Part shown: piece after piece, positions 7,478 to 55,880 of the stretch | How positions within the stretch are numbered: the first letter of the stretch is position 1 | How the letters are laid out: every line of letters starts with the position of its first letter | Assembly (NCBI GenBank): GCA_964441065.1 | Contig: CAYTWD010000001.1 | Coordinates: 5,975 to 69,974 of the forward strand | Source of the DNA: an uncultured Candidatus Peribacteria bacterium | GTDB lineage: Bacteria; Patescibacteriota; Gracilibacteria; UBA1369; 2-02-FULL-48-14 | Direction of reading: 5' to 3' | Length of the DNA stretch: 64,000 bases | The notes under the pieces: generated by a model | The model's input: the letters and a program-made list of their open reading frames with translations, nothing else | Database searches by the model: none | Told to the model about the DNA's origin: nothing | Translations under genes and position numbers: made by a program

Positions 7478-8611
7478 CTAAAATATCCCATCAAAAAAAC
7501 CTTCCGACTTCACATTAACTTTGCTCTCTTTCGCCAAGTTCTCAAATAGTTCTCTCTCTTTCTTTGTAAGCTTTTCAGGGATTTTAACATTCACTTTTAA
7601 GATATGATCACCCATCTTATCTGATCTTATGTTAGGAGCTCCTTTTCCCTTAATGCTTAGTTCAGTTCCGCTCTGAATTCCAGCGGGAATCTTCAAGTCA
7701 ACTTTCCCATGCACGGTTTCAACTTTAATATTCGCACCCAAAATAGCCTGTAAAACGTGAATGTCTTCACTAGAGTGAATATTAGGACCGTCTCTCAGGA
7801 ATTTTTTATGCGCAAAAACTCTAACATGAACATATAAATCACCGTGCTTTCCACCTCTAACCCCTGCGGAGCCCTTTTCCTTAATTTTTATTGATGTCCC
7901 GTCTTCAATGCCTTTCGGAATTTTAACGGTAACCTCCTCAGTCTGCTTGGTACGCATCTGACCTCGACATTCAATGCACAATTTTTCAGGAATCTCACCT
8001 GTTCCTTGACATGTTGGACATAAATGTACACTGCTCATTTTACCCAAAATTGTCTGTCTCGTAACCCTAACCTGCCCCTGCCCGTTACATTGTCCACATT
8101 TTTTGACAGAAGTTCCGGGTTCGTTACCTTTGCCCGCACATTTTTTGCAGGTTTCAGGTTTTGTTATTTCAAGATATTTTTCAACCCCAAAAATTGCCTC
8201 TTCAAATTTAATATCAACCTGAACCTGAATGTCATTTCCCCTTATAGGTCCTGCTTTGGCAGTCTGTTCTTCTCCCCTCATATTTTCACCAAAGAAACTC
8301 TCAAAAATATCAGCAAATCCGGCAAAATCATTCGGATTAAACCCACCCTGAGCCCCATTGAATCCAAATCCACCACCTTGTGCCCCCCTTTGAGAGGCTC
8401 CTGCAGATCCAAATCTGTCATAATTAGCACGTTTTTGAGGGTCTGAAAGAATTTCATATGCCTCCTGCACAGATTTAAACTTCTTTTCGGCTTCTTTATT
8501 ATTCGGATTTTTATCGGGGTGGAACTCCTGAGCTTTCTTCCTGTAGGCTTTTTTAATTTCACCTTCAGTTGCTCCTTTGCCTACTCCCAGTGTTGAATAT
8601 AGATCGTCCAT
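7478..8611 (-). CDS. dnaJ: molecular chaperone DnaJ
   Basis: 377 aa. J domain with HPDKNP, a G/F-rich linker, and four zinc-finger repeats (three canonical CxxCxGxG, the fourth, CIECRGQM, degenerate at its last Gly). Confidence 0.95.
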
Positions 8612-13476: not shown

Positions 13477-13506
13477 AGCCCCCCGCTTCGGCGGGGGGCT
13501 TTTTTG
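13477..13506 (+). terminator. strong intrinsic terminator of the S-layer gene
   Basis: A 10-bp GC stem, AGCCCCCCGC-TTCG-GCGGGGGGCT, followed by TTTTTG. Confidence 0.85.
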
Positions 13507-13562
13507 TTTACTGGCCGAAGGCCAGCCATTCGGTCAGCGCCGAACGGCGCGCACAGCTAAAA

Positions 13563-13579
13563 AGTGCACCCGCTGCACT
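13563..13579 (-). terminator. intrinsic terminator of the GT4 gene
   Basis: On the minus strand the sequence reads TAA-AGTGCA-GCGGG-TGCACT-TTTTA, directly abutting the stop codon at 13580-13582. Confidence 0.55.
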
Positions 13580-14641
13580 TTACAACAAATCCAAATACAA
13601 TTTCTCAAACTCATCCGCCGCCTTATCCCATGAAAAGTTTTTCTTTTCGCTAACTTTCCACTCTCCGGCTTCAGCTTTTTTCAGTGCATCAATCAACGAG
13701 GTCTTGTCTCCGCTTCTGAAAATCAAATGCTTTCCGCCGGCGATTTCAGGCAGTGAACCCGCATCGCTGAGAATAACCGGAACATCCATCGCCATCGCCT
13801 CTGCGGCGGTGAATCCAAAACCTTCCGCAAGGGAAGGTACAACAACCGCGTCGGCCTTCGCAATTTCACCGGGCAAGTCTGCACGTGCAACACTTTTCTT
13901 GACGGTCACAAAATCAGAAATTCCTGAAATCATTTTCTCAACTCTGGCAAAATCTTCATCACTACCGGAAAGTAATAATTTAAATTCTGTTTTTCCTCGG
14001 TAGTCTTTATAAAACTCTTGAAGACTTTCAATCAAAAACCAGATTCCTTTGTTGCCGGCAATTCTTCCGAAGTATAAAAATTCAAAACCTTCATGCGGGA
14101 CACTAGAAGGCGTGAACATCTCATCGATCCCATGGTAAATCACGTTAGACTTTCCTTTCAATTTTTTTTGAGTGGCTTTTGAAACCGCCACGGTGTGATC
14201 AAAATTAAATCCCAAAAGAATTTGTTCCAAAAAACCAAATAATCGAGCTTTATGGGCGTGTCTCGGAAACACATGTGTAAAGTCCGGACCCAACACCTCA
14301 TGCACGCTTAGAACAGAAGTTTTGCCATGAATTTTTGAAGCAATCCAGGCCGGTAGAACAGCGTTATACATTGTTGCATGAATTATGTCCGCCTTAGCTC
14401 CAATTTTCATAACTAGCGGAATCGATAAAAATGTAAAAGAATTTTGAGTTTTTCCTACTCGGTAAATAGTTCCGCCTTCCTCTTTTTCAACACTTGGTGC
14501 ACCGGTTTCAGCCGAAGTTATAACATCCACGTGATGCCCACGCGCAATCAGGCGTTTTCGTAGCTCAAAAAAGAACGTTTCAACTCCGCCGATGTGCGGA
14601 GGATAATGTTCGGCAACAAAAAGAATTCGAAGAGTTTTCAT
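13580..14641 (-). CDS. glycosyltransferase family 4
   Basis: 353 aa. N-terminus RILFVAEHYPPHIGGVE and C-terminal EGFGFTAAEAMAMDVPV (EX7E region). Confidence 0.85.
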   Translation of the reverse strand: MKTLRILFVAEHYPPHIGGVETFFFELRKRLIARGHHVDVITSAETGAPSVEKEEGGTIYRVGKTQNSFTFLSIPLVMKIGAKADIIHATMYNAVLPAWIASKIHGKTSVLSVHEVLGPDFTHVFPRHAHKARLFGFLEQILLGFNFDHTVAVSKATQKKLKGKSNVIYHGIDEMFTPSSVPHEGFEFLYFGRIAGNKGIWFLIESLQEFYKDYRGKTEFKLLLSGSDEDFARVEKMISGISDFVTVKKSVARADLPGEIAKADAVVVPSLAEGFGFTAAEAMAMDVPVILSDAGSLPEIAGGKHLIFRSGDKTSLIDALKKAEAGEWKVSEKKNFSWDKAADEFEKLYLDLL

Positions 14642-14979
14642 TTTTTTGGAATGTCGCGCAGGCTGTCTTCTCGAACAATTTGAGTTATCTCTCGTTCAAG
14701 AGATTCAAGTTTAACGTAAATTCTGTAGATTAAATAAAACAAAATCACAATTCCGGAGTAAACAAAAACATCCACACCACGGCCAATTCCAAATTTCTTT
14801 GCAAGAAACTCGGTTGTGTTTGGAATAAAAAGTACAATCAAAAACCCAATCCAAATCATTGACCAAAAAATCAAACCGAACAAACTAACGCTATCATCTC
14901 TGTATCTTAAAAAAACTCGACTCCAAGCAAACAAAACAAAAATCGCTCCTACAATTTGAATTAAACTTATATTGTACAT
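14638..14979 (-). CDS. small membrane protein, DUF2304-like
   Basis: 113 aa with three TM helices, a GIGRGVD motif and a C-terminal amphipathic tail. It overlaps the downstream GT4 gene by 4 nt and is separated by 1 nt from the upstream GT2 gene. Placement next to a GT2 is typical of DUF2304 proteins. Confidence 0.5.
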   Translation of the reverse strand: MYNISLIQIVGAIFVLFAWSRVFLRYRDDSVSLFGLIFWSMIWIGFLIVLFIPNTTEFLAKKFGIGRGVDVFVYSGIVILFYLIYRIYVKLESLEREITQIVREDSLRDIPKK

Positions 14980-14980
14980 A

Positions 14981-15676
14981 TTATTTGATTAAGCGATGCA
15001 TTAGTAGTCTAGCAAATGTTTTGATTCCCACAAAAAAACTTTGTCCTTTTGAGAGAGAATAATCCGTGTAAATTGCCTTAATTGGAACCTCTTTGAACCT
15101 TAAACCATGGTATCCGATCTCACGAATAATTTCACTGCTTACTTCCATTCGATTTGTTCTAATTCTAATGTGCTCTGCTGCATTTCTATTGAAACCGCGA
15201 AGGCCGGATTGGCTGTCGGTTGTCCAAACTCCAAACAAAAAATAAGTCACATAATTTGCGATTCGATTTGCGATTCTTCTTTTCATCGGCATTCCCTCCG
15301 GATCAATTAAACGTGAGCCGATTACAACATCAGCCTCACGTCGTTTCAGCGGAGAAAGAACCTTTTGAATATCTTTCGTATCGTGCTGACCATCCGCGTC
15401 AAAAGTAATTATATACTCCGCGCCCATTCTGAGCGCTCCTTGAATTCCTGTTCCCAAAGCACCTCCGAGGCCGCGATTCAACTTGTGTTTAACAACAACT
15501 TGCGCATGTTTTTTAGCGACTTCAAAAGTGTCATCTCTACTGCCGTCATCAACTACAATCGTTTTTTCATAACCGGCTTCTTTCAGATTTTTCAAAACCT
15601 TCAGAATTGTGTTCCCTTCGTTGTACGCCGGAATAACTATCCAAGTGTCATGCATAATCAAGTACCAACATCCCAA
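14981..15676 (-). CDS. glycosyltransferase family 2 (polyprenyl-phosphate sugar synthase-like)
   Basis: Contains VIPAYNEG, VVDDGSRDDT and FDADGQH motifs. The more likely start is the ATG at 15655 (MHDTW...). Confidence 0.85.
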   Translation of the reverse strand: MGCWYLIMHDTWIVIPAYNEGNTILKVLKNLKEAGYEKTIVVDDGSRDDTFEVAKKHAQVVVKHKLNRGLGGALGTGIQGALRMGAEYIITFDADGQHDTKDIQKVLSPLKRREADVVIGSRLIDPEGMPMKRRIANRIANYVTYFLFGVWTTDSQSGLRGFNRNAAEHIRIRTNRMEVSSEIIREIGYHGLRFKEVPIKAIYTDYSLSKGQSFFVGIKTFARLLMHRLIK

Positions 15677-16908
15677 GAAGACAAATATTTTTTCTGTTCT
15701 TCGGTTAATTGGTCGATTGAAACGCCCATTGCTTCCAGTTGAAGTCGAGAAATATCATCATCAATGTGCTCGGGAAGTGTGTAAACTTTTGCGCTCAAAG
15801 TCGCTTTATTTTTTACCAACCATTCGCAAGCCAAGGCCTGACCACAGAATGAAAGTGACATGACTTCGCTCGGATGACCTTCCGCTGATGCAAGATTTAT
15901 AAGTCTGCCCTCGCCGGCCAAGAAAAGAACTTTCCCGTCGAAAGCGTATTCATCAAAATAAGGTCTGATGCGGCGTTTTGTCGCCATTTTTTCAAGACCT
16001 GCAACATCGATTTCAAGATCAAAATGTCCGCTGTTAGCCATCATCGCGCCATTTTTCATAACTTTCATGTGCTCTGTTCTAATCACATGTTTATTTCCGG
16101 TCACAGTAATAAAAATATCACCTTCTTTCGCCGCGTCTTCCATTTTCATAACTCGGAATCCGTCCATCTTTGCCTGCAAGGCACGAAAAGGATTTACTTC
16201 AGTGACAATCACGTTCGCACCCATTCCTTTTGCACGAAGCGCGCAACCTTTGCCGCAACTTCCATAACCCAAAACAACAACATTTTTCCCAGCGAACAAA
16301 ATATTTGAAGCGCGAATTATTCCGTCCAAAGTCGATTGGCCGGTTCCATAATAATTGTCCATCAAATGTTTTGTGAGGTTGTCGTTCACGGCAACCATCG
16401 GAAACTTCAAAATATTATCTTTTTCCATTGCCTTTAAACGAATCACTCCGGTTGTTGTTTCTTCGCATCCGCCCAAAACTTTAGCGGCTTTTTCAGGATG
16501 TTTTGTTAAAAGTTCGGTAACCAAATCGCAACCGTCGTCAATTGTGATGTCCGGCTCAAATGCAATAACTTGATTCAAAAAATTGTAATATTCTTCGCTT
16601 GATTCGCCTTTGTGACCGAAGACTAAAACTCCTTCTTCAAGTGCCAAAGCCGCCGCCACATCGTCTTGTGTTGAAAGTGGATTGCAACCTGTTATTGCCA
16701 CCAGAGCGCCCCCGGCGCGCAAAGTTCTAACTAGAATCCCTGTCTCTTTTGTTATGTGAAGAGCCATACCGATTTTCAAACCGGCAAAAGGCTTTTCTTT
16801 AGCGAATCTTTCACGAACCTTTAGAAGCGCGTGCATATTCCTTTCCGCGAGTTCCAAATTTAACTTCCCTTGATCGGCAAGTGCCGGATTTTTAACGATT
16901 GATTCCAT
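15658..16908 (-). CDS. ahcY: adenosylhomocysteinase
   Basis: 416 aa. Contains GCNPLSTQDDVAAAL, the NAD site GYGSCGKG and HFDLEID, all typical of SAH hydrolase. Confidence 0.95.
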   Translation of the reverse strand: MESIVKNPALADQGKLNLELAERNMHALLKVRERFAKEKPFAGLKIGMALHITKETGILVRTLRAGGALVAITGCNPLSTQDDVAAALALEEGVLVFGHKGESSEEYYNFLNQVIAFEPDITIDDGCDLVTELLTKHPEKAAKVLGGCEETTTGVIRLKAMEKDNILKFPMVAVNDNLTKHLMDNYYGTGQSTLDGIIRASNILFAGKNVVVLGYGSCGKGCALRAKGMGANVIVTEVNPFRALQAKMDGFRVMKMEDAAKEGDIFITVTGNKHVIRTEHMKVMKNGAMMANSGHFDLEIDVAGLEKMATKRRIRPYFDEYAFDGKVLFLAGEGRLINLASAEGHPSEVMSLSFCGQALACEWLVKNKATLSAKVYTLPEHIDDDISRLQLEAMGVSIDQLTEEQKKYLSSWDVGT

Positions 16909-16910
16909 TT

Positions 16911-18044
16911 TTAAATTCCTTTAGATAATATTTCTGCCTTGTCTGTTTTTTCCCAAGTGAAATCGGGAAGTTCTCGCCCAAAGTGACCGTATGCCGCAGT
17001 TTGTCTGTAAATTGGTCTTCTTAGATTTAGTGAGGTAATAATTCCTTTTGGAGTTAGATCGAAGTTTTTTCTAACCAATGCCACCAAAATTTCATCTGAA
17101 ACTTTTCCTGTTCCGTGAGTATTCACATTTATTGAAACCGGTTCAGCAACTCCAATCGCATAAGAAATCTGAACCTCACATTTATCAGCCAATCCCGCAG
17201 CCACAATATTTTTTGCAACATAACGTGCCGCGTAAGCCGCGCTCCTGTCCACTTTTGAAGGATCTTTACCTGAAAAAGCGCCACCTCCGTGTCTACCCAT
17301 TCCGCCGTAGGTGTCCACAATAATTTTTCTACCGGTAAGTCCGCAATCTCCTGGAGGACCACCGATAATAAATTTTCCTGTTGGGTTTATGTGGAAAATC
17401 GTGCTCGCCGTTAAGTAATCTCCGCAAACCGGCTTAATTACTTTTTCAATCACATCTTTTTTAATCTGTTCATGGCTAACTTCCGGTCCGTGCTGAGTTG
17501 AAACTACAACTGTGTTAACGCTCTTTGGCTTCCCGTCAACATACTCAACCGTAACCTGACTTTTCCCGTCCGGTCTCAAATAAGGCAGAGTTCCGTTTTT
17601 CCTAACTTCAGCCAATTTCATTGTTAATTTGTGCGCCAACATAATTGGAAGAGGCATCAACTCTTTAGTTTCATTCACTGCAAATCCAAACATCATTCCC
17701 TGATCTCCCGCTCCTCCCGTGTCCACGCCCATTGCAATATCCGGGCTCTGTTCATCAATAGTTGTAATAACCGCGCAGGCATCACAATCGAAGCCGTAAG
17801 TCGCGTCGTTGTAACCGATTTCCTTGATGACGTTCCTTGCTATTTTTGAAATCGGAGCATAAGCCGAAGTTGTAATTTCTCCCGCGACCACAACCAAACC
17901 GGTAGTCACAAGAGTTTCACATGCCACGCGTCCGTTTGGATCGTCTTTAAAAATTGCATCCAAAACCGCGTCTGAAATTTGATCGGCAACTTTATCGGGA
18001 TGCCCTTCCGTAACAGATTCGGAAGTAAAAAGATGTGTACTCAT
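16911..18044 (-). CDS. metK: S-adenosylmethionine synthetase
   Basis: 377 aa. Contains [23 protein letters not shown] and [16 protein letters not shown]. Confidence 0.95.
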
Positions 18045-18107
18045 AATCTATAAAAAATTCTCGCACAGCATATATGAATTGCTTTTGAGAGGCAACCTTA
18101 TGTATAT

Positions 18108-18893
18108 TTGACGGCGATGTTGAAAAAAGCCAAAAATTTGCTCAAGCACTACCGGAAAAAAATAAAGATGTATGGTCCTTACTATTTTGACAAACTTCGC
18201 GGGAAAAAAATTTTTAGTTCAAATTATTATGGCATACCATTGGTGATGCACGCCGATACTCATTATCATCATCATATTTTGCGTTGGCAGAGGAATTCTT
18301 GGTATGAACCGCACATTTTGGCGGAATGGCTTGAGCTTTCAAAAGGAAAAAAATGCATTCTCGACATAGGCGGATACAATGGACTTTTTGGAATTCTTGC
18401 CGCAAAACTAAATCCTGAAGGGAAAGTTTTTATTTTCGAGCCGGATGAAATAAATTTCAAACATATCGCGAAAAATATTGAACTAAATAAACTTACAAAT
18501 GTAACACCATTGCAAATCGCTTTGAGTGACAAAGAAGGCGAAGTTGTTTTTGGAGGACACGGCGGAGGAACAGGTGCGAGAATTGGGGTCGGAACGAAAA
18601 AAGTCAAAGCAGTCAGCCTTGATACTTTTATAAAAGAAAACAACATAAAACCGGATCTGATTAAAATCGACGTTGAGGGTGCTGAAATCTTGGTTTTTGA
18701 AGGAGGAAAAGATTTTTTCTCAAGCGATTTAAAACCACAAATCCTACTCGAGGTGCACTTCGAATTTTTAAAAAACTTCAACTCCAGCGCCGAAGACCTT
18801 TTCAAAAAAATCAACAGCTACGGTCGTTTTGATCGTAAAGATCTCGAAGATAGCCGTGAAGTCACTTACACGGTGAAGCTTCAGAAAATTTAA
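18108..18893 (+). CDS. FkbM-family SAM-dependent methyltransferase
   Basis: Contains DIGGYNGLF, the KIDVEGAE motif and a glycine-rich loop. The likely start is the ATG at 18117. Confidence 0.75.
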   Translation: MTAMLKKAKNLLKHYRKKIKMYGPYYFDKLRGKKIFSSNYYGIPLVMHADTHYHHHILRWQRNSWYEPHILAEWLELSKGKKCILDIGGYNGLFGILAAKLNPEGKVFIFEPDEINFKHIAKNIELNKLTNVTPLQIALSDKEGEVVFGGHGGGTGARIGVGTKKVKAVSLDTFIKENNIKPDLIKIDVEGAEILVFEGGKDFFSSDLKPQILLEVHFEFLKNFNSSAEDLFKKINSYGRFDRKDLEDSREVTYTVKLQKI

Positions 18894-18900
18894 GTAATTT

Positions 18901-19578
18901 TTAGAGCACTATCAGTCGCCTTTTTGTGTTAGTCATTTGACATGCTAAAACCTCATCTTGATGGCAGTATTCATCATACTTTTCTTTAAAAACCCTCTTC
19001 AAATTAGACAACTCCATTTTCGGCATTTTTGTGAATAAGTCATGCAAATCTGAAAAACCAAGCCACTCGACAATTTGATTAAATCCTTTTACGTATGATC
19101 TATTTTTCTCCCTGAATCTGGGAATTGCAAACAAGGAGTCCAGGTCCTCAAATCTCCATTGTTGATTTTTTTCAAGCATGTAAATCAGCTCAATAAATAT
19201 GGGAAGATGTTCTTGTTCAACCGTGTGATGAATAATCTCGTGTATAATCTGAGACTGTTCAAACTCGGCTCTGTCTTTATCCGCAAGCGAATTTACATTT
19301 ATATCAATATCAACACCTGCGGTCCCGTGAGAACCGGAATTTTTAAGCCTCAGCATATTTTTTTTACCAAGAAGAGAGTCTTCGCCGAGAATCTGAGAAA
19401 GATATGAATAGCCACTCTGAAGAAATTCAAGTGCCAAGGCTTTTATTTCCGGTGCAACCACCATGCTGTTATTTCTGTAACCGATTTCAATCTTCATGCC
19501 GGTTTCAGGAATTACAAAGTCCTCTTCGTACCCCTTGAATTGTAGATCATCAAATGTTGTCATATTGTGATTATACAA
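18901..19578 (-). CDS. hypothetical protein with an HExxH zincin-like motif
   Basis: 225 aa. Contains IIHEIIHHTVEQEH. No signal peptide or TM segment is visible. It directly abuts the upstream ORF with a 0-nt gap. Confidence 0.4.
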   Translation of the reverse strand: MYNHNMTTFDDLQFKGYEEDFVIPETGMKIEIGYRNNSMVVAPEIKALALEFLQSGYSYLSQILGEDSLLGKKNMLRLKNSGSHGTAGVDIDINVNSLADKDRAEFEQSQIIHEIIHHTVEQEHLPIFIELIYMLEKNQQWRFEDLDSLFAIPRFREKNRSYVKGFNQIVEWLGFSDLHDLFTKMPKMELSNLKRVFKEKYDEYCHQDEVLACQMTNTKRRLIVL

Positions 19579-20385
19579 CTAAGCAATTTTCTTCTTAAAT
19601 TTAATTCTGAAGGAACTGTTCATGTAGAAAAAATCTTCTTTATAGTTCTTTGGATCCCAAACTTTTGTATCGTCCGGTGCACATCCGTATTTAGACCGAA
19701 AAGTACGCATGTCAAACAAATATTTCTCACCTCCTGTTGAAGTAAAAATCTGTAAATCCGGGTCTTTATTTTTAAACCTCATCAAATTTATTGTGTCCAA
19801 TTTTCTCGCAGGGGAATATCCTCTTTTTTTGTTTTCCAACCAATATATTAAATCTGGTTGCCCGACTTCAGCTGAAACAACTTGAGGTTTTTCCCTTTGA
19901 GAGACATATTCCTCAAAAAGTTTGAGAATTTCACTGGCGATTCCTTGTTGTCGATATAAATTACCGGTTTCTCTATGTTTCATATTCCAATCTTCAGTTT
20001 CGCCAATTTCAAACCTCGCGAAATCAAAAGTTCCTGCATAATATTTTGACCAGTCATCTTTTGAGCAGTCCGGTCGTACTAAATTTAAAGACATAACATC
20101 CTTACTTCCACGCCAGCCCCTCGTACTTTTTGAAAATTGAAGTTCAAGTTTTTTACCACTTGTTGATGGAATTTCACACACGGCAAAATCGCCATTTCCA
20201 GATGAATCATAAGAATCCATTTTTTTAAAAAGTTCTTTTTTATCTAAAGCTTTCCAATCAATTCCCAAATCAATTACATCATTAACCGCACCATTCACCG
20301 CATCTCTATTTTCTTTTAAAACCAAATCAGTCTCACGAGGAGCCTCTCCAGGTTCAAGGGTTTCAGGTTTTTCATTTGTTTCCAT
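19579..20385 (-). CDS. hypothetical protein with a GNAT-like acetyl-CoA binding core
   Basis: Contains LYRQQGIASEILKLFEEYV (an R/Q-x-x-G-x-A/G signature) and LIYWLENKKRGY. I place the start at the ATG at 20385 (METNEK...) because a consensus promoter covers the upstream GTG at 20418. Confidence 0.4.
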   Translation of the reverse strand: METNEKPETLEPGEAPRETDLVLKENRDAVNGAVNDVIDLGIDWKALDKKELFKKMDSYDSSGNGDFAVCEIPSTSGKKLELQFSKSTRGWRGSKDVMSLNLVRPDCSKDDWSKYYAGTFDFARFEIGETEDWNMKHRETGNLYRQQGIASEILKLFEEYVSQREKPQVVSAEVGQPDLIYWLENKKRGYSPARKLDTINLMRFKNKDPDLQIFTSTGGEKYLFDMRTFRSKYGCAPDDTKVWDPKNYKEDFFYMNSSFRIKFKKKIA

Positions 20386-20391
20386 CCGCTC

Positions 20392-20420
20392 ATTATACCT
20401 CAAAACAGCACTTTTCACAA
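20392..20420 (-). promoter_or_regulatory. near-consensus sigma70 promoter giving a leaderless or near-leaderless mRNA
   Basis: The minus strand reads TTGTGA (20420-20415), a 17-nt spacer, then TATAAT (20397-20392). The ATG at 20385 lies 6 nt after the -10 element. Confidence 0.5.
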
Positions 20421-20439
20421 TCCGGCTTTATTTTATAAA

Positions 20440-20457
20440 AGTGCACCCGGGTGCACT
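20440..20457. terminator. bidirectional intrinsic terminator
   Basis: Perfect 18-nt palindrome AGTGCACCCGGGTGCACT flanked by AAAA and TTTT, 2 nt after the stop codon at 20460-20462. Confidence 0.7.
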
Positions 20458-20459
20458 TT

Positions 20460-21377
20460 TCACTCTGCAAAATACTCAATAGTCTTTTTCAAACCGCTTT
20501 CCAAATCAACTTTCGGATCGAAACCCAACTCGGCACGTGCTTTTGAAATGTCCGGCTGACGAATTTTTGGATCGTCTTGTGGCAAAGGTTTGTGGATAAT
20601 CGTACTTTTGCTTCCGGTCAATTTCACAATCATTTCAGCGAGCTCCAAAATAGTTGTTTCTTTAGGATTTCCCAAATTAACAGGCCCGTCAAAATTCACG
20701 CTGTTCATGACACTCACAATTCCGTCCACCATGTCGTCGATATAACAGAATGAACGTGTTTGCTTCCCGTCGCCGTAAATTGTGATCGGATCGCCTGCCA
20801 AAGCTTCGCTCACAAAGTTTGGAATCACTCGTCCGTCATTCGCGCGCATTAGCGGTCCGTAAGTATTAAAAATCCTGAAGATTCTAGCGTTTACCCCATG
20901 AACTTTTTGATAATTCATAATCAAACTTTCTGCGAATCTTTTCCCTTCGTCGTAACAACTTCGCGGACCGTTTGGATTCACATTTCCCCAATAATCTTCT
21001 TTTTGTGGATGAACCAAGGGGTCACCATAAACTTCTGAAGTCGACGCGTGCAAAAACATCGCCTTATTTTTTCGTGCCAACTCCAGCAGATTTTTTGTAC
21101 CGGCCGCGCTAACCCACAGCGTTTCCAGCGGAATATTTTGATAATCCACAGGAGAAGCAGGACAAGCCAAATTTATAATAACTTCAAACTCACCTTCAAA
21201 AGGCTCTGTAATGTCATGATCAACAAATTTCAAATTTCCCGCTAAATGCGAAAGATTTTTCAAATTTCCTGTCACAAAATTATCAATCGCGGTCACTTCA
21301 TGACCCAAACTCAAAAGCCTTTCCACCAAGTGGCTTCCAATGAATCCCGCCCCGCCTGCAACCAAAATCTTACTCAT
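20460..21377 (-). CDS. UDP-glucuronate decarboxylase (UDP-xylose synthase)
   Basis: 305 aa SDR. Contains GGAGFIGSHL, STSEVYGDP, WGNVNPNGPRSCYDEGKR and GDGKQTRSFCY, all typical of UXS. Confidence 0.9.
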   Translation of the reverse strand: MSKILVAGGAGFIGSHLVERLLSLGHEVTAIDNFVTGNLKNLSHLAGNLKFVDHDITEPFEGEFEVIINLACPASPVDYQNIPLETLWVSAAGTKNLLELARKNKAMFLHASTSEVYGDPLVHPQKEDYWGNVNPNGPRSCYDEGKRFAESLIMNYQKVHGVNARIFRIFNTYGPLMRANDGRVIPNFVSEALAGDPITIYGDGKQTRSFCYIDDMVDGIVSVMNSVNFDGPVNLGNPKETTILELAEMIVKLTGSKSTIIHKPLPQDDPKIRQPDISKARAELGFDPKVDLESGLKKTIEYFAE

Positions 21378-21380
21378 TTG

Positions 21381-22061
21381 TTAGGATTTTACCGCCTCAA
21401 ACAGATATAGCAAGCTGAAGTTCCCCGCGTATTTTTTGTAATAAAAATTGCCAATCAAATCAAACAAAAATAATCCCGACTGGAAAATCGCCCGCAAAAA
21501 TCGAGGAGCAGGCGTGCTTTGAAAACCCAAAACAAAAGGCCCAACTCCCACTGAAACCATTTTTTTAACCTTTAAACCGTGTTTTTCAAGAATTCTTTCA
21601 AGCGCGGTGTGAGTGTATCTGTGATAATCGTCAGGATCGGCATGAAATGGATACAAAAATGGCACGCATCCAATCAATTTCCCGCCTTGTTTCATTATTT
21701 TCGCACTCTCTGAAATCAAATTGTCGGTGTTGAAAATATGCTCGATCGTGTTGAAACAAAGTACAAAATCAAAGCCGCTCAAATTTGCCGGAAAAGGTTT
21801 TTCCAGATCAATTTTCATAACTTTCGGTCCTTCGCTAAAATAATCGCAAAAATATAAATCTGCCGAATTATCTTTTTCCAAAAAACGATAATAACTCGAT
21901 TCGCCAGACTTCGCGCCCAAATCCATAACTTTGCCGCTCAACCTGTCAAAAGGATGTTTTTTCATGCTCAAATTCAGCAAAATTCTCGGCAAACTTTTGC
22001 CTTTTAAAGATTCGCGCCAAACGAATCCCAAATCCGAAAATGAAAACTTTGAATGTTGCAC
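21381..22061 (-). CDS. class I SAM-dependent methyltransferase
   Basis: Contains VMDLGAKSG (motif I), FDFVLCFNTIEHI and MKQGGKLI. Confidence 0.7.
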   Translation of the reverse strand: MQHSKFSFSDLGFVWRESLKGKSLPRILLNLSMKKHPFDRLSGKVMDLGAKSGESSYYRFLEKDNSADLYFCDYFSEGPKVMKIDLEKPFPANLSGFDFVLCFNTIEHIFNTDNLISESAKIMKQGGKLIGCVPFLYPFHADPDDYHRYTHTALERILEKHGLKVKKMVSVGVGPFVLGFQSTPAPRFLRAIFQSGLFLFDLIGNFYYKKYAGNFSLLYLFEAVKS

Positions 22062-22121
22062 GGCGCCAGCCTACCGTAAAAGCTCGACTTTTTCCAATCT
22101 CTCATTTATTCTTCCGGCACT

Positions 22122-23420
22122 ATGAAGATAACAGTAGTTGGCACAGGATACGTTGGCTTGGTCACTGGAACTTGCTTCGCGGAGCTAGGGAATGATGTTA
22201 TTTGCATAGACATAGACGAGGCAAAAATTGAAAGATTAAAAAAAGGCGAAATTCCAATTTATGAACCCGGTCTTGAAGAATTGGTTTTGCGAAATCACAA
22301 AGAAGGTCGTTTAAATTTTTCTACCGATCTCAAAACCGCGATTGAATGGTGCGAAATCATTTTCAGCGCGGTTGGAACGCCTCAGGGCGAAGATCACCGT
22401 GCCGATTTGCAATACGTACGCGCGGTCGCAAAATCTGTCGGTCAGCATTTGAACGGCTACAAAGTTTTCGTAAATAAATCGACAGTTCCGGTTGGCACAA
22501 GCAACGAAGTGAAAGAAATAATCGCGTCTCAAACAAAATTTCCTTTCGATGTGGTGGATAATCCGGAATTCCTCCGAGAGGGTTCTGCAGTTAAAGACTT
22601 TTTAAACCCTGATAGAATTGTTTGCGGAGTTGAAAGTGACAAAGCGAAAGAAGCGATGGAAAAACTTTATTCACCGCTCGTGCGCGCAGGCAGACCTCTA
22701 CTTTTCACAGACATCCACTCCGCTGAAATTATCAAATACGCTTCGAACGCATTTCTCGCGACAAAAATTTCTTTCATAAATGAAATTGCTAATTTCTGTG
22801 AAGCCGCCGGAGGCGATGTTACAAACGTGGCAAAGGGAATGGGTCTCGACGACAGAATCGGCTCAAGATTTTTGCACGCTGGAATTGGCTACGGAGGAAG
22901 TTGTTTCCCAAAAGATGTAAACGCCTTCATTCAAACCGGTCTTGATCACGGCTACGACTTCAAAATTATCAAAGCCGCGAATGAAGTTAATCAAATTCAG
23001 AAAAAAGTCATAATCAAAAAAATTCTCAAAGAATTTCCAAAGCTCGACGCTTTAACAATCGCGGTTTGGGGCTTGGCTTTTAAACCAAAAACTGACGACA
23101 TGCGCGAAGCACCGTCTCTTGAAATTCTCCCTGAACTTTTGAGCGCGGGCGCAAAACTTCAAGTTTTTGATCCTGTTGCCGCTGAAAACGCAAAGAAAAT
23201 TCTGGGCTCAAATAACATTGAATATCTCACTTCACCTTACGATGCCGCAACCGGAGCCGACATTCTTCTGATCCTCACCGAATGGGACGAATTCCGCGCA
23301 ATCGATTTGAGTCGAATTGTCTCATCAATGAAAGGAAAAACGATTTTCGACGGCCGCAATATTTATCAGCCCGCCGAAATGCAAAAACTAGGTTTTAAAT
23401 ATGTGAGCGTCGGGAGATGA
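22122..23420 (+). CDS. ugd: UDP-glucose 6-dehydrogenase
   Basis: 432 aa. Contains MKITVVGTGYVGLV, the catalytic GGSCFPKD and GLAFKPKTDDMREAPS. Confidence 0.95.
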   Translation: MKITVVGTGYVGLVTGTCFAELGNDVICIDIDEAKIERLKKGEIPIYEPGLEELVLRNHKEGRLNFSTDLKTAIEWCEIIFSAVGTPQGEDHRADLQYVRAVAKSVGQHLNGYKVFVNKSTVPVGTSNEVKEIIASQTKFPFDVVDNPEFLREGSAVKDFLNPDRIVCGVESDKAKEAMEKLYSPLVRAGRPLLFTDIHSAEIIKYASNAFLATKISFINEIANFCEAAGGDVTNVAKGMGLDDRIGSRFLHAGIGYGGSCFPKDVNAFIQTGLDHGYDFKIIKAANEVNQIQKKVIIKKILKEFPKLDALTIAVWGLAFKPKTDDMREAPSLEILPELLSAGAKLQVFDPVAAENAKKILGSNNIEYLTSPYDAATGADILLILTEWDEFRAIDLSRIVSSMKGKTIFDGRNIYQPAEMQKLGFKYVSVGR

Positions 23421-24289
23421 AAAACTATAAATCCTCCATTTTCGCCCTAATAACAGTATTTTTGTGGGCATCAACGGCGGCTATTGTTAAATTACTTTTA
23501 AATGATCTTTCGAGTATTCAAGTCACTTTTTACTCATTCATTTTTACATTAATTGGACTATTCGCGATTGTGGCTTTCGAGAAAAAATTACCACTTTTAA
23601 AAAAATATACAAAAACGGATTACCTAAGAATGATGGGGATCTCGGTTTTGGGTTGTTATTTGTATTATGTTTTTCTTTTCGGAGCACTTGAATACGCACC
23701 CGCTCAAGAAGCTTTTATTGTTAATTATTTGTGGCCGATAATGGTGGTTATTTTTGGCATTATAATTTTAAAAGAAAAATTAAGCGTCAAAAAAATATTG
23801 GGTTTGCTAGTCAGTTTCTTGGGAGTTTATTTGGTCGCCGCAAAAGGTTTTGGATTCATTTTTGAGAATCCAAAGGGAGATATTTTGGCAATTTTAGGAG
23901 CAATTTCTTACGGACTTTTTTCGATTCTTTGTAAGAAATATAAGTATGAAGCATCAACTTCCACATTAATTTATTATTTCTTTGGATTTATTCTTGTCAC
24001 AATTACCACCTTCTTTTTCTCACACATCGAAGCAGTTTCATTTTATGAAATTTTAGGTTTGGCGTGGCTTGGAATAGTTGTAAACGGAGTGGGATTTATT
24101 TTTTGGATCAAAGCACTTGAACAAGGTGAAACCGCGAAAATCGCCAACTTAATATTTTTAACGCCGTTTTTGTCGCTCGTTTACATTCATTTTTTGTTAG
24201 GCGAAAAAATCTTGATCAGCTCAATTTTGGGACTTATACTCATCATTGCAGGAGTTTTTATTCAGTCGCTAGGAAAAGAATCAGCTTGA
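23417..24289 (+). CDS. EamA/DMT-family transporter
   Basis: 290 aa with ten hydrophobic helices in two EamA-like halves. The start overlaps the ugd stop in an ATGA arrangement. Confidence 0.8.
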   Translation: MKNYKSSIFALITVFLWASTAAIVKLLLNDLSSIQVTFYSFIFTLIGLFAIVAFEKKLPLLKKYTKTDYLRMMGISVLGCYLYYVFLFGALEYAPAQEAFIVNYLWPIMVVIFGIIILKEKLSVKKILGLLVSFLGVYLVAAKGFGFIFENPKGDILAILGAISYGLFSILCKKYKYEASTSTLIYYFFGFILVTITTFFFSHIEAVSFYEILGLAWLGIVVNGVGFIFWIKALEQGETAKIANLIFLTPFLSLVYIHFLLGEKILISSILGLILIIAGVFIQSLGKESA

Positions 24290-24333
24290 TTTATATATAG
24301 TTTTAAACTATACTAAAAATAGTTATTAACTAT
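24286..24333 (+). promoter_or_regulatory. promoter plus two palindromic operators of the toxin-antitoxin operon
   Basis: TTGATT (24286-24291), a 17-nt spacer, then TATACT (24309-24314). Palindromes TATAGTTTTAAACTATA (24296-24312) and ATAGTTATTAACTAT (24319-24333) have centres 22 bp apart. Confidence 0.5.
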
Positions 24334-24337
24334 ATCT

Positions 24338-24577
24338 ATGACTACACAAGTTTCATTTGTCGCTGACCAACACTTGAAAAATCAAGCTCTTGAAAAAGCT
24401 AAAAGCGAGGGGATCACACTAAAAGCATTTCTTGTTTTTGCCATGAAAAGTTATGTTGAAGGAAAAATTTCATTGGGGATCGAATCCACAAATAACGAAG
24501 CGGATGTGGAAATAATTAGATTCAACGACAAATCAATCTACAATAAAGCTTCAAAAATCGCCAAATTACTGAAATAG
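24338..24577 (+). CDS. putative antitoxin
   Basis: 79 aa, 1 nt upstream of a RelE-like ORF. The assignment rests on position and size only. Confidence 0.45.
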   Translation: MTTQVSFVADQHLKNQALEKAKSEGITLKAFLVFAMKSYVEGKISLGIESTNNEADVEIIRFNDKSIYNKASKIAKLLK

Positions 24578-24578
24578 C

Positions 24579-24953
24579 ATGCTGATTTTGACTAGCTATA
24601 TTTTATCACATGAACTAAAGCCGCTACGCAGGTTCTTAAGTATTGATGAAATAAAAAAGAGAGCAGAAAAAGTTAGATCGGGTCTTGCTATTACAATAAA
24701 AGTTCCACAAAACATCAAGGGAATTGAATTTTATAAAGTTCGCATTGGAAGAAATAATGGAGCAAGAATGATAGTTTTTATGATCATTGAAAATAAAAAA
24801 ATTGTCCCTGTGCTCATTCGTTTGAAGAAAGACAAAATATTTGGTATGAATATGGCCATGAATAATCCTCAAGTAGAAAAGCAAATCAGCAAAAATCTCG
24901 ATCACATTTTTGAAGATATAAAATTAAAAGACTTTCAAGAATTTATACAATGA
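24579..24953 (+). CDS. RelE/ParE-superfamily toxin-like protein
   Basis: 124 aa. The core FYKVRIGRNNGARMIVFMIIENKKIVPVLIRLKKDK matches the RelE/ParE beta-sheet pattern Y.(L/V)R.G..R(I/M)I..I....I..L.I..R. Confidence 0.55.
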   Translation: MLILTSYILSHELKPLRRFLSIDEIKKRAEKVRSGLAITIKVPQNIKGIEFYKVRIGRNNGARMIVFMIIENKKIVPVLIRLKKDKIFGMNMAMNNPQVEKQISKNLDHIFEDIKLKDFQEFIQ

Positions 24954-25500
24954 CAAACATTTTCATCATTCACGGCGTTGGTGGACATCCTCAAGAAACA
25001 TGGTTTCCTTGGCTGAAAGCCGAACTGGAAAACACGGTCACAATGCTATCGTTCCACAATTTCCAACTCCTGAAGGCCAAACTTTGGAAAATTGGCTCGC
25101 GGTCCTAAAAAACTACGAAGAATTTATCACGCCCGAAACTATTTTTGTTGGGCACAGTTTGGGAGCACATTTTGTTTTAAATGTGGCGGAAAGATATAAA
25201 ATCGGCACAGCCTTTTTGGTGGCGAGTTTCTTTGAACCATCTGACAATCAGTTTGATGTAATGTTGCCGACTTTCACGCAAAAACCCTACGACTGGGAAA
25301 AAATCAAGGAAAATTGCAAAAAATTCGTAGTTATCCATTCTGACAACGACCCATATCTCAAATTGGAAAAAGGTGAAAAATTAGCAAAAATTCTAGGCGT
25401 TGATCTCATTCTTGTGCCTGGAGCAGGACACATCAACGAAGCCGCTGGCTTTCGAAAGTTCGAATTACTCTTGCAAGAGATCTTGAAAATCAAGAATTGA
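24950..25500 (+). pseudogene. alpha/beta hydrolase (YdeN/RBBP9-like serine hydrolase), split by a 1-nt frameshift
   Basis: The N-terminus MTNIFIIHGVGGHPQETWFPWLKAELEN is in one frame starting at ATG 24950. The continuation (K)HGHNAIVPQFPTPEG...GHSLGA...D...GAGHIN is in the ORF 25000-25500. The two join if the A4 run at 25029-25032 is read as A5. Confidence 0.6.
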
Positions 25501-25540
25501 GATCTGTCCTCTTTCTCTCTTTCATGCTATTTTGCGCTGG

Positions 25541-26464
25541 ATGAAAATTTTAGTAACAGGCGCGGCTGGTTTTATTGGATCGCATTCGGCGAAGGCTTTG
25601 ATTGCTCGTGGCGACACTGTCTACGGTATTGACAATTTCAATGATTACTATGAGGTTGCGCAGAAAGAGAAAAATGCCGAAGGAATAAATATTTTTCGTG
25701 TCGATATTGGCGACGAGTCTGCAATCGAGAAAATCTTTGCCGAAATTAAACCGCATGTTCTTTTGCATCTCGCGGCGCGGGCTGGAGTTCGTGCTTCAAT
25801 TGCCGATCCTGAGCTTTATCATGAAGTGAATGTGCTCGGCACAAATATTTTGTTGGAAGCGTGCAAGCGACACTCCGTGGGTCGTGTCGTGTTCGCTTCG
25901 AGCTCTTCCGTTTATGGAAATCAGAAAAAAACGCCCTTTTCAGAAACCGACGAAACCGAAAATCCAATCAGTCCTTACGCCGCAACAAAAAGAACAGCTG
26001 AAAATCTTTGCTACGCTTATTCAAAAATGTACGGTCTTCAAATAACTTGTCTTAGATTTTTCACGGTTTACGGCCCGAGCGGACGACCGGACATGGCGCC
26101 GCTAATGTTTACAAAAGCGATTGATGCGGGCGAGACAATTAAACGTTTTGGCGATGGAAGTTCAAAACGCGATTATACTTTTATTGATGATATTGTTTCC
26201 GGGATTGTTTCCGCGGTAGATAATCCTTTCAATTTTGAAATTATAAATTTGGGAAATAATAAACCCGAAGAATTGCGAACTTTGATTTCTACGATTGAAA
26301 AGAATCTCGGAAAAACCGCGAAAATTGAAGAACTTCCAATGCAGCCGGGCGACGTTGAAATGACTTACGCAGACATTAGAAAAGCCGAAAGGCTTTTGCA
26401 TTATTCCCCGCAAACCACGCTTGAGCAAGGAATCGCAAAATTAATTAAATGGTACAAAAAATGA
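25541..26464 (+). CDS. NAD-dependent sugar epimerase (UDP-glucuronate 4-epimerase-like)
   Basis: Contains MKILVTGAAGFIGSH, YAATK and FRFFTVYGPSGRPDMAP, which is typical of GAE/WcaG-type SDRs. Confidence 0.75.
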   Translation: MKILVTGAAGFIGSHSAKALIARGDTVYGIDNFNDYYEVAQKEKNAEGINIFRVDIGDESAIEKIFAEIKPHVLLHLAARAGVRASIADPELYHEVNVLGTNILLEACKRHSVGRVVFASSSSVYGNQKKTPFSETDETENPISPYAATKRTAENLCYAYSKMYGLQITCLRFFTVYGPSGRPDMAPLMFTKAIDAGETIKRFGDGSSKRDYTFIDDIVSGIVSAVDNPFNFEIINLGNNKPEELRTLISTIEKNLGKTAKIEELPMQPGDVEMTYADIRKAERLLHYSPQTTLEQGIAKLIKWYKK

Positions 26465-27360
26465 AATATTTGGTAACAGGCGGGGCGGGTTTCATTGGAT
26501 CGCATATCGCGCGAGCTCTGCTCGCGCTTGGCCACAAAGTCGCCATAATCGACGATCTTTCAAATTCAAAAAAGGAAAATGTTCCGGAAGGCGCGGAGTT
26601 TTTTCAAGGTTCAATAACAGACAAAACTTTACTAAAAGCATCGCTTCGCGATGTGGACGGAGTTTTTCATTTGGCCGCACTCGTTTCGGTTCCAAAATCA
26701 ATGGAAGATCCAAAATATACCCTTGAAGTTAACGCGCTCGGCACACTTCGAATTCTCGAAGTAATGCGTGAATTAAAAGTTAAAAAAATTGTCTACTCGG
26801 GAACTTCCGCCGCCTACGGTGATCAAGGCTCAGCAAAAAATACCGAAGACATGACTCCGCAAACTCTTTCGCCTTACGCCTACTCAAAACTTGAAAGCGA
26901 ATATTTAATAAAAACTTACGGACATCTTTACGGAATCCAATCTGTTATTTTCAGATACTTCAATGTTTTCGGTCCCGGCCAAGACCCATCTTCGCCGTAC
27001 TCCGCCGTCATCGCACTATTCACTTCTAAAATCCAAAAAGGCGAAAAAATTTCTGTCTACGGTGACGGCAAACAAACCCGCGATTTCATTTTCGTTGATG
27101 ATGTTGTTGCCGCAAATTTACTCGCGATGAACTCATCTGTAAACAACGAAGTAATCAACATCGGCCGCGGCGAATCAATTTCAATTCTCGATTTAATTTC
27201 CGTGCTCGGCAAAATCTTCAATCAAAAAATCGAACCGGAATTTAAAGCACCACGCTCGGGTGACATTCTTCATTCCTGCGCAGACGTTTCAAAAGCACGC
27301 AAGCTACTCAGCTTCGACCCGAAGGTGAATTTGGAGGAGGGATTGAGGAGATTCATATAA
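26461..27360 (+). CDS. NAD-dependent epimerase/dehydratase (UDP-hexose 4-epimerase-like)
   Basis: Contains MKYLVTGGAGFIGSH, YAYSK and GDGKQTRDFIFVDDV. The start overlaps the upstream stop in an ATGA arrangement. Confidence 0.75.
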   Translation: MKYLVTGGAGFIGSHIARALLALGHKVAIIDDLSNSKKENVPEGAEFFQGSITDKTLLKASLRDVDGVFHLAALVSVPKSMEDPKYTLEVNALGTLRILEVMRELKVKKIVYSGTSAAYGDQGSAKNTEDMTPQTLSPYAYSKLESEYLIKTYGHLYGIQSVIFRYFNVFGPGQDPSSPYSAVIALFTSKIQKGEKISVYGDGKQTRDFIFVDDVVAANLLAMNSSVNNEVINIGRGESISILDLISVLGKIFNQKIEPEFKAPRSGDILHSCADVSKARKLLSFDPKVNLEEGLRRFI

Positions 27361-27422
27361 TTTATTGAAGCATATTTTTTAGAAAAAGTCCTGAATTAAA
27401 GCTGAATTTTCACGGTCTTTCA

Positions 27423-55469: not shown

Positions 55470-55880
55470 ATGAAACAGCACTTAGAAAAAATCCCCGTAA
55501 GCCTCAGACAATTCATCAAATTCTGTTTCGTGGGCTTACTAAACACCGCAATTGATACATTTGCCTATATTTTTTTCACCAGGGTTCTTGGGATATTTTA
55601 CCTTTTGGCAAACATATTTGCCTTTATGATCTCCTCAACTAACAGCTATTTTTTAAATAGGGTTTTTACTTTTAAAAGCACTCACGATAAAAAGAAACTG
55701 GAGTACGGAAAGTTTATGAGTGTCTTGCTTGTTGGTTTGTTTCTGGCTGAAATTGTTCTCTTTATCTGTGTACACTTCTTTGGTCTCGATGACATTATTG
55801 GCAAGCTAAGCGCAATCGCAGTTGTTCTATTCTGGAATTTCTTTGGAAGTAAGTTTTTTGTCTTTAAAATAAAGAAGTAA
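55470..55880 (+). CDS. GtrA-family membrane protein
   Basis: 136 aa with four TM helices. Contains FIKFCFVGLLNTAID and NSYFLNRVFTFK. Confidence 0.8.
   Translation: MKQHLEKIPVSLRQFIKFCFVGLLNTAIDTFAYIFFTRVLGIFYLLANIFAFMISSTNSYFLNRVFTFKSTHDKKKLEYGKFMSVLLVGLFLAEIVLFICVHFFGLDDIIGKLSAIAVVLFWNFFGSKFFVFKIKK

Follow-up and report, generated by a model that had tools for sequence, protein, structure and literature searches.

Two adjacent genes with a leaderless-type layout in a Patescibacteria bacterium: a GNAT-like protein and a putative HExxH metallopeptidase from separate, uncharacterised families

Two-gene toxin-antitoxin (TA) or defence modules, in which a GNAT toxin is accompanied by an antitoxin or an ImmA/IrrE-type zincin by an Xre repressor, consist of small adjacent genes on the same strand, and TacT and AtaT are GNAT toxins of this kind with a partner antitoxin. 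The GNAT superfamily also includes HAT1, NatD/Naa40, and RimI, while the gluzincins (M1, Zincin_1) are metallopeptidases with an HExxH motif and a downstream Glu, HExxH-x18-E being the signature of M1 aminopeptidases. Leaderless genes with promoter-proximal start codons are known in Actinobacteria and Deinococcus and characterise the genomes that GeneMarkS-2 assigns to its 'group C' (PMC6028130; PMC3160421). Here we describe a locus that can be compared with each of these: two genes, designated open reading frame (ORF) A and ORF-B, in a 64,000-nt stretch of contig CAYTWD010000001.1 from an uncultured Candidatus Peribacteria bacterium (assembly GCA_964441065.1). This whole stretch is referred to as the window, and all coordinates are positions in it. 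A previous description based on the letters of this DNA (the sequence-only reading) had presented the two genes as a single leaderless cassette that resembled a two-component toxin-immunity, defence, or peptide-modifying module. Our analysis favours, with a probability of about 0.6, two adjacent and evolutionarily independent accessory genes of a Patescibacteria (candidate phyla radiation, CPR) bacterium, each of them leaderless, with ORF-A encoding an acyltransferase-like protein and ORF-B a putative zinc peptidase, and not a toxin-immunity or defence module. All parts of the gene pair, the hairpin upstream of it, and the promoters lie on the minus strand, and the genetic code is standard. 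The features on which the comparison is based are as follows:

20460-21377, minus strand: UXS-like short-chain dehydrogenase/reductase (SDR) gene, stop codon TGA
20392..20420, minus strand: ORF-A promoter of the sigma-70 type, TTGTGA (20420-20415), N17, TATAAT (20397-20392)
19579..20385, minus strand: ORF-A, 268 aa, with an acidic disordered N-terminus (residues 1-37), DLGIDW, a GNAT-like core, and C-terminal FFYMxSSFRIKxKK
19570..19598, minus strand: ORF-B promoter-like site, TTAAGA (19598-19593), N17, TATAAT (19575-19570), then 6 nt and ATG 19563
18901..19563, minus strand: ORF-B, 220 aa from the ATG, a soluble HExxH protein of a CPR-wide family

In agreement with the sequence-only reading, which had recognised neither protein as a member of a known family, ORF-A and ORF-B had no match in Pfam, NCBIfam, PADLOC (defence components, E <= 1), or PHROGs (phage families, E below 0.05). 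A word-indexed search of 5.8 billion proteins returned three relatives of ORF-A with 58-61% identity, and after profile search the family comprised 10 proteins among these 5.8 billion, the others being 26-41% identical; all of them come from CPR-type metagenomic contigs, one of which is labelled Candidatus Peregrinibacteria. For ORF-B, the word-indexed search matched ORF-B itself and nothing else, and an exhaustive HMMER search of 1.84 billion representatives yielded 62 proteins at E <= 1e-3 (31 at E <= 1e-10), which are ~200-245 aa long, truncated entries aside.

The distribution of the two families in different genomes provides the main evidence that they are independent. Loci of the ORF-B family were collected by using a degenerate DNA pattern on the S-HE-H-E-M-E-E block and verified with a hidden Markov model (HMM) of the ORF-B alignment, which gave ~34 loci (8 from species-representative genomes and 26 from Joint Genome Institute metagenomes), those with named taxa belonging to Uhrbacteria, Saccharibacteria, Gracilibacteria, and Peribacteria. 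Because the pattern demands Met at position 122, the few members in which this residue is I or L escape it, among them the ORF-B gene of the window itself. No relative of ORF-A was detected by the ORF-A-family HMM in any of the ~34 loci, many of which are short contigs in which this absence covers a few kb only, and none of the 7 distinct loci of the ORF-A family contains a relative of ORF-B according to the ORF-B HMM. In the close ORF-A orthologues (L001-L007), the gene is located between those for a fibronectin-type-III protein and an unrelated 217-aa protein; the latter is not a hidden ORF-B homologue, as judged by BLASTP (E >= 0.6) and by the lack of HExxH. More distant ORF-A homologues (L008, L009, L011/12, and L013) are solitary, with unrelated neighbours, and often face a convergent gene. 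The two families are not a conserved pair but neighbours in one lineage. With 0 of ~34 and 0 of 7 loci holding both families, an outcome that the sequence-only reading had itself named as evidence against its proposal, with no PADLOC match, and with ORF-B relatives mostly among housekeeping genes, the module proposed in that reading is not supported.

Each of the two genes appears to have its own promoter. The TTGTGA-N17-TATAAT element upstream of ORF-A, which had been pointed out before, was confirmed with a score of 10/12 and begins 17 nt beyond the hairpin that follows the UXS-like gene. Six nucleotides (GAGCGG) separate its TATAAT from ATG 20385, and the A of this ATG, as the 7th nucleotide after the -10 box, occupies the canonical +1 of sigma-70 promoters. 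The promoter-like site of ORF-B, which the sequence-only reading had overlooked, also has a score of 10/12; it lies inside the 3' end of ORF-A and spans the ORF-A stop codon (TAG), which is followed by TTGTATAATCACAAT and then ATG 19563. The number of promoter-like sites in the surrounding 5-kb region is close to the shuffle expectation (12 observed versus 11.4), but the two top-scoring ones are exactly those located 6 nt before ATGs 20385 and 19563. The exact hexamer TATAAT was found 49 times in 128,000 strand positions (both strands of the window), and three of these 49 are placed 6-7 nt ahead of the ATG of a long ORF (20385, 19563, and 55470), for which a Poisson estimate gives an expectation of ~0.04; such placement is beyond chance. 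The same geometry is present in ORF-A orthologues despite an identity of only 61% and divergence of the spacer sequences (TTGAGG-N17-TATAAT-CATCAG-ATG in L001 and TTGAGG-N17-TATAAT-TAAGTG-ATG in L007), and the 26%-identity homologue of L011 has TAGAAT-TAAAAG-ATG. These observations are consistent with the leaderless layout that had been suggested and argue for an mRNA of each gene that would start at the A of its ATG. What had been described as one cassette is better read as two adjacent units, each transcribed from its own sigma-70-type promoter, although ORF-B might also be reached by read-through from the ORF-A promoter, because there is no terminator between the two genes.

Leaderless initiation may be a widespread habit of this lineage and not special to the ORF-A/ORF-B locus, considering that in the related genome L001 TATAAT is present 6-8 nt ahead of the ATG in 4 of 23 genes (10001, 11050, 14404, and 18818, one of them MurA-type) and that Shine-Dalgarno sequences are almost absent from the genes of the window. 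Like the leaderless genes of Actinobacteria, Deinococcus, and group C genomes, the genes discussed here have a -10 box 6-7 nt before the AUG and no Shine-Dalgarno sequence, and the arrangement recurs in the same genome and in related genomes; unlike them, they form only a minority of the genes and are known from sequence. In the literature collection that was searched, no pertinent description of leaderless genes or HExxH proteins in CPR bacteria was found. Elsewhere in the window, sites of the leaderless type were observed, e.g., at 55470 (see above) and 6239. The UXS-like gene has TAAAAT 8 nt before its own ATG (21378-21394), within the 3' end of the upstream methyltransferase gene, which might be an internal leaderless promoter.

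The promoter geometry also bears on the start codons. Both the public gene call for ORF-A (P0001, 279 aa) and a mechanical list of ORFs begin at GTG 20418. Because this GTG lies within the -35 hexamer and the orthologues begin with MET... or MG... in alignment with the ATG, ATG 20385 is, on this sequence evidence, the true start of ORF-A, and the public call is 33 nt too early. For ORF-B, the options are ATG 19563 (220 aa) and TTG 19578 (225 aa), the latter directly before the -10 box. The ATG is more likely, since the public call (P0005) has 220 aa and the second perfect TATAAT is found 6 nt upstream. The 0-nt gap previously reported between the two genes holds only if TTG 19578 is used.

Upstream of the ORF-A promoter, the UXS-like gene is followed by a palindrome:

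20437..20460, minus strand: hairpin, perfect 24-nt palindrome AAAAGTGCACCC/GGGTGCACTTTT, likely intrinsic terminator of the UXS-like gene

A perfect palindromic terminator had been placed at 20440-20457; the palindrome is indeed perfect (100% complementary) and more stable than most shuffled sequences, but its extent is slightly longer than described, and its first base is also the last one of the stop codon of the UXS-like gene. The predicted RNA has a 10-bp stem, a CCGG loop, and a folding free energy of -12.8 kcal/mol (z = -2.8; 3 of 200 shuffles were as stable), with UUUUAUAAAAU directly after the hairpin and a U-tract, UUUU(A)U, that is partly within the stem. A pattern-based terminator scan did not call this hairpin, which indicates a moderate and not a strong terminator; our guess is that the scan missed it because the U-run is taken into the stem. 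It is likely that the hairpin acts as an intrinsic terminator, in which case transcription of the UXS-like gene would end there. In a strain ~97% identical to the window (from metagenome run X2), several indels are located in the terminator spacer (20441-20464).

Alignment of the 10 ORF-A-family sequences reveals conserved blocks that may be related to GNAT motifs. The DLGI-W block is invariant (DLGIDW in most members), and EEWDMKHRET precedes Y-R-x-Q-G-I-A, which corresponds to GNAT motif A (R-x-x-G-x-A); Y144, Q147, G148, and A150 are invariant and R145 nearly so (>=90%). The C-terminal FFYMxSSFRIKxKK is conserved as well. The two motifs are located as follows:

19936..19956, minus strand: GNAT motif A, Y144-R-Q-Q-G-I-A150, putative acyl-CoA pyrophosphate loop signature
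19816..19842, minus strand: GNAT motif-B-like segment, W182-LENKKRGY190, family consensus WLEKRGF within GQxDLxxWLEKRGF

In a low-confidence AlphaFold2 (AF2) model built from 4 sequences, motif A falls between a strand (residues 130-139) and a helix (149-162), in the order beta4-loop-alpha3-beta5-alpha4. When this model was compared with the PDB by Foldseek, the top 50 matches were almost all GNATs (HAT1, NatD/Naa40, RimI, Gcn5, and aminoglycoside acetyltransferases) with probabilities of up to 0.99, though the matches were weak. Alignment with hhalign against a bona fide GNAT encoded in L037 (E 1.2e-3, probability 19%) placed motifs A and B in register, with motif A of ORF-A opposite QGKGIG. 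Thus ORF-A resembles the GNAT superfamily in having R-x-x-G-x-A at a strand/helix junction, a motif-B-like (W/F)LxKxGF, and the predicted order beta4-alpha3-beta5-alpha4, but differs in ~60 extra N-terminal residues (acidic, disordered, and DLGIDW) and in a conserved C-terminal extension of ~70 residues. The GNAT-type core and the acidic, disordered-looking N-terminus had both been noticed in the sequence-only reading; the first 40 residues have a net charge of -7, and residues 1-37, with a predicted local distance difference test (pLDDT) score below 50, are predicted to be disordered. Its statement that neither protein has a signal peptide or a transmembrane segment also stands, as a hydropathy scan found no transmembrane segment and no signal-peptide-like N-terminus in ORF-A or ORF-B (maximum 19-residue Kyte-Doolittle values of 0.61 and 0.86, respectively). 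It is likely that ORF-A has a GNAT fold, and from its motifs we infer a divergent, acyl-CoA-dependent acyltransferase of a very rare family.

The HExxH motif of ORF-B (IIHEIIHHTVEQEH), which had been considered zincin-like, is part of a conserved block:

19171..19254, minus strand: putative metal-site block of ORF-B, S104-x3-H108-E109-x2-H112-x5-E118-x3-(M/I)122-x2-E125-x5-E131

Zincin character is supported by the alignment of 51 family members, in which H108, H112, E118, and E125 are present in 51/51, E109 in 50/51, and S104, M122, and E131 in 47/51 sequences (consensus of the block, QSLIVHELVHNLTDDEDLPMFAELIYMLEKGH). Four members have one extra residue between H112 and E118, and the E118-x6-E125 spacing is constant. 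No curated peptidase family matched the ORF-B family above threshold. The sub-threshold Pfam matches of its members are mostly to zincins (Peptidase_M1, Zincin_1, DUF2268, Reprolysin_3, and DUF5700), Peptidase_M1 being found in 3/51 members with a best value of 1.1e-4, and one Peptidase_M1 match also spans 60 residues ahead of HExxH. A model of low confidence has a beta-rich N-terminal half followed by two helices with HExxH and the Glu residues, which is a zincin-compatible order. ORF-B shares with gluzincins, such as the M1 catalytic domain and the minimal zincins of Zincin_1, the invariant-type H-E-x-x-H and the downstream Glu residues, including E131 at the x18 spacing of the M1 signature, as well as its small size and its solubility, and it has weak sub-threshold matches to Peptidase_M1 and Zincin_1. 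In contrast to gluzincins, it carries two further invariant Glu residues (+6 and +13 after the second His), and in contrast to the M1 catalytic domain it does not have a GAMEN-type exopeptidase motif. To our knowledge, E118 and E125 are nearer to HExxH than in any gluzincin, and we know of no zincin signature that matches the ExLPMxxE block. ORF-B is most likely a soluble zincin-type metallopeptidase of ~25 kDa, a plausible assignment at the level of the superfamily, in which zinc would be held by H108, H112, and one of E118, E125, or E131, with E109 as the general base. In one locus (L018, 2437-2439), the ORF-B homologue is broken by an in-frame TAA where the family mostly has Q or H; a nonsense mutation, pseudogene formation, or, as the contig has 2.8x coverage, a sequence error might explain this.

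The neighbours of ORF-B relatives are mostly housekeeping genes in the clustered and annotated loci. In one CPR clade (nine loci, namely L047, L065, L050, L043, L040, L062, L068, L051, and L037), the ORF-B relative follows dnaJ and precedes nusA-infB, and pairwise identity among the ORF-B proteins of this clade falls as low as 33-44%. In L047, 4 nt separate the ORF-B relative from dnaJ, with dnaK upstream, and in L037 a NUDIX gene is inserted between dnaJ and the ORF-B relative. Other contexts include mnmA-X-alaS (L045 and L029), an HD-domain gene as the immediate upstream neighbour in four Uhrbacteria-type loci, and genes for a signal peptidase and LytR, a CAAX protease, an Abi_C protein, and a YafQ toxin. 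The frequent presence of the family in housekeeping operons such as dnaK-dnaJ-X-nusA-infB makes it likeliest, as judged by the synteny of a single clade, that ORF-B processes peptides or proteins in the cytoplasm or takes part in quality control, and the relatives in the dnaJ clade are possibly chaperone-linked peptidases. The dnaJ gene of the window is located at 7478-8611 and does not adjoin ORF-B. NUDIX genes adjoin ORF-B homologues twice (L037 and L046), which may be coincidence. One contig from an 'uncultured Gammaproteobacteria' metagenome-assembled genome (L023) is probably mis-binned Uhrbacteria, because it shares synteny with L026 (Uhrbacteria), the products of several genes near the ORF-B homologue being 62-74% identical.

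The surroundings of the pair in the window, which had been described as a coherent sugar-nucleotide region, are borne out as such by the annotated neighbours. The gene order is GT4 and GT2 (glycosyltransferases), S-adenosylhomocysteine (SAH) hydrolase, MetK, FkbM methyltransferase, the ORF-A/ORF-B pair, the UXS-like SDR, a methyltransferase, UDP-glucose dehydrogenase, and EamA. These genes belong to a large glycan-biosynthesis region (~13500-27400, probably further), in which SAH hydrolase and MetK form a methyl cycle beside the two methyltransferases and EamA is a transporter. The FkbM gene is convergent with ORF-B, and their stop codons are 7 nt apart, for which reason the candidate terminator of ORF-B lies inside the FkbM gene:

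18776..18795, minus strand: candidate weak terminator of ORF-B transcripts, antisense inside the convergent FkbM gene, a pattern match only

Several results weigh against two independent leaderless genes with these functions. The start sites are predicted from the DNA, as the locus sequence was sought in RNA runs and found in none. For ORF-A, Acetyltransf_* families gave no match in Pfam (E <= 1) or NCBIfam, the family profile found no GNAT and nothing relevant among PDB sequences, the AF2 model has a mean pLDDT of 59 and a predicted TM-score of 0.53, and the Foldseek matches have a best E of 2e-3 (none <= 1e-3) with TM-scores of 0.2-0.3. The family profile of ORF-B found no zincin among PDB sequences, and its single-sequence AF2 model has a pLDDT of 39, with which the fold search returned noise; of the structural comparisons that the sequence-only reading had proposed for both proteins, the one for ORF-A thus pointed, weakly, to GNATs and the one for ORF-B was meaningless. 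The limited reach of the short contigs belongs here too, as does the fact that the two genes are kept together in at least two strain-level variants of the same organism, from two other metagenomes, the only other places where the pair was seen. Finally, canonical GNATs (Pfam Acetyltransf_1) lie near ORF-B relatives in two loci, adjoining and convergent in L037 (6325-6816) and 0.9 kb away in L044 (4506-4961). Because GNATs are common, this is probably coincidence. The last two observations, together with the adjacency of the genes on the same strand and the lack of a terminator between them, would also suit a lineage-specific functional pair, co-transcribed from the ORF-A promoter, such as a toxin with its immunity protein, an acyltransferase that marks or controls the substrates of a peptidase, or a peptide-modifying pair. 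We regard such a pair as very unlikely, considering that the families do not co-occur across ~34 + 7 loci, that elsewhere each is solitary or in unrelated contexts, that ORF-B has its own promoter, that PADLOC gave no match, and that the GNAT of L037, being convergent, is not co-transcribed, while two GNATs in ~30 loci can arise by chance. The pair resembles TA and defence modules in consisting of two small adjacent same-strand genes for a GNAT-like and an HExxH protein, but it has no conserved pairing and no DNA-binding partner, ORF-A has no partner antitoxin as TacT and AtaT do, and neither protein is related to a known family of toxins or antitoxins, the members of which are much smaller. 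In related genomes, genuine TA pairs (YafQ/ParE, PIN) are often encoded close by. A bolder variant, which we consider a long shot, is that the ORF-B family represents an undescribed CPR-specific metalloprotease linked to DnaK/DnaJ, paired here with a GNAT-like acyltransferase that modifies its substrates or regulates ORF-B; if true, proteolysis would here be coupled to acylation by a new pair of proteins, in organisms whose proteostasis machinery is minimal.

It is also conceivable, but quite unlikely, that ORF-A and perhaps ORF-B are tailoring enzymes of the glycan pathway, e.g., one that N- or O-acylates a nucleotide sugar or the polymer. The pair is situated within the glycan region, with the FkbM methyltransferase gene on one side and the genes for the UXS-like protein and UDP-glucose dehydrogenase on the other, a distant ORF-A homologue (L011/L012) adjoins an SDR epimerase, and genes for the cell envelope (MurA, MurB, and M23) are common near ORF-A homologues. 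However, the L011 SDR did not prove to be a UXS orthologue, since it belongs to a different subfamily and shares only 30% identity with the UXS-like protein of the window, and it is convergent; other loci of the ORF-A family have no adjoining sugar genes, the hairpin and the separate promoters insulate the pair from the operon, and the best structural matches of ORF-A, weak as they are, are protein N-acetyltransferases and not sugar acetyltransferases. Were the promoter-like sites chance occurrences in AT-rich DNA, the genes might be the tail of the UXS operon or have leadered mRNAs that start elsewhere, and the near-expected number of sites in the 5-kb region, the modest stability of the hairpin with its interrupted U-tract, and the indels in the spacer of the X2 strain would all fit. 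This we hold to be improbable in view of the exact position of the two best sites before the two ATGs, the geometry conserved in orthologues that are 61% identical with diverged spacers, and the rarity of TATAAT (49 per 128 kb), which is nevertheless found 6-7 nt before three ATGs. With respect to ORF-B, its HExxH/E metal site might serve another hydrolase chemistry, regulation, or a role like that of a DnaK/DnaJ co-chaperone, an explanation that we consider unlikely. It draws on the lack of a zincin family above threshold, a zincin fold that depends on a low-confidence model, the unusual proximity of the invariant E118 and E125 to HExxH when set against the gluzincin spacings known to us, and the tight dnaJ linkage in one clade. 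On the other side, HExxH with an invariant second-position Glu and a downstream Glu is the classic zincin signature, the weak matches are nearly all to zincin peptidases (with one M1 match covering the 60 residues before HExxH), and the beta-rich N-terminal half and two motif helices predicted at low confidence fit zincin topology. We therefore retain two independent, leaderless genes for an acyltransferase-like protein and a putative zinc peptidase as the preferred interpretation.

The stakes of this interpretation are modest: it is a first description of two protein families without a curated model. About half of the genes in CPR genomes have no annotation, so two uncharacterised CPR-restricted families as neighbours are an ordinary finding for such genomes. 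The points of most value are the linkage of the HExxH family to dnaK-dnaJ, a hint at a proteostasis role in genome-reduced bacteria, and the leaderless-type architecture of the genes. The locus is a further comparative indication that leaderless genes without Shine-Dalgarno sequences are in use in some CPR lineages, with consequences for start-codon calling. The negative outcome is useful as well: the locus is not to be listed among new defence or toxin systems.

Nothing marks the ORF-A/ORF-B pair as a mobile or defence islet. A mobile insertion was considered and rejected, as there are no flanking repeats and the GC content of the pair (35-37.5%) is near the window mean (38%), the conserved neighbour genes having 41-43%; a phage origin was also rejected, because neither family has a true match in viral contigs. 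Some variation between strains was observed within both genes. In ORF-B residues 31-50 (19415-19473), contigs from metagenome runs X1 and X2 differ from the window at 22 nt in a 59-nt patch, which changes 10 of 20 residues (NNSMVVAPEIKALALEFLQS to DDSLPVTTEEKELALKFLQD), and the rest of the 1182-nt X1 contig is identical to the window. By its appearance it is a recombination tract or a patch of allelic variation; a diversity-generating retroelement was rejected as its source, since the substitutions are not adenine-specific. In ORF-A, the X2 strain has an in-frame 6-nt deletion at 19826 by which two residues of the ENKKRG segment are lost, exactly where the ORF-A orthologues lack two residues.

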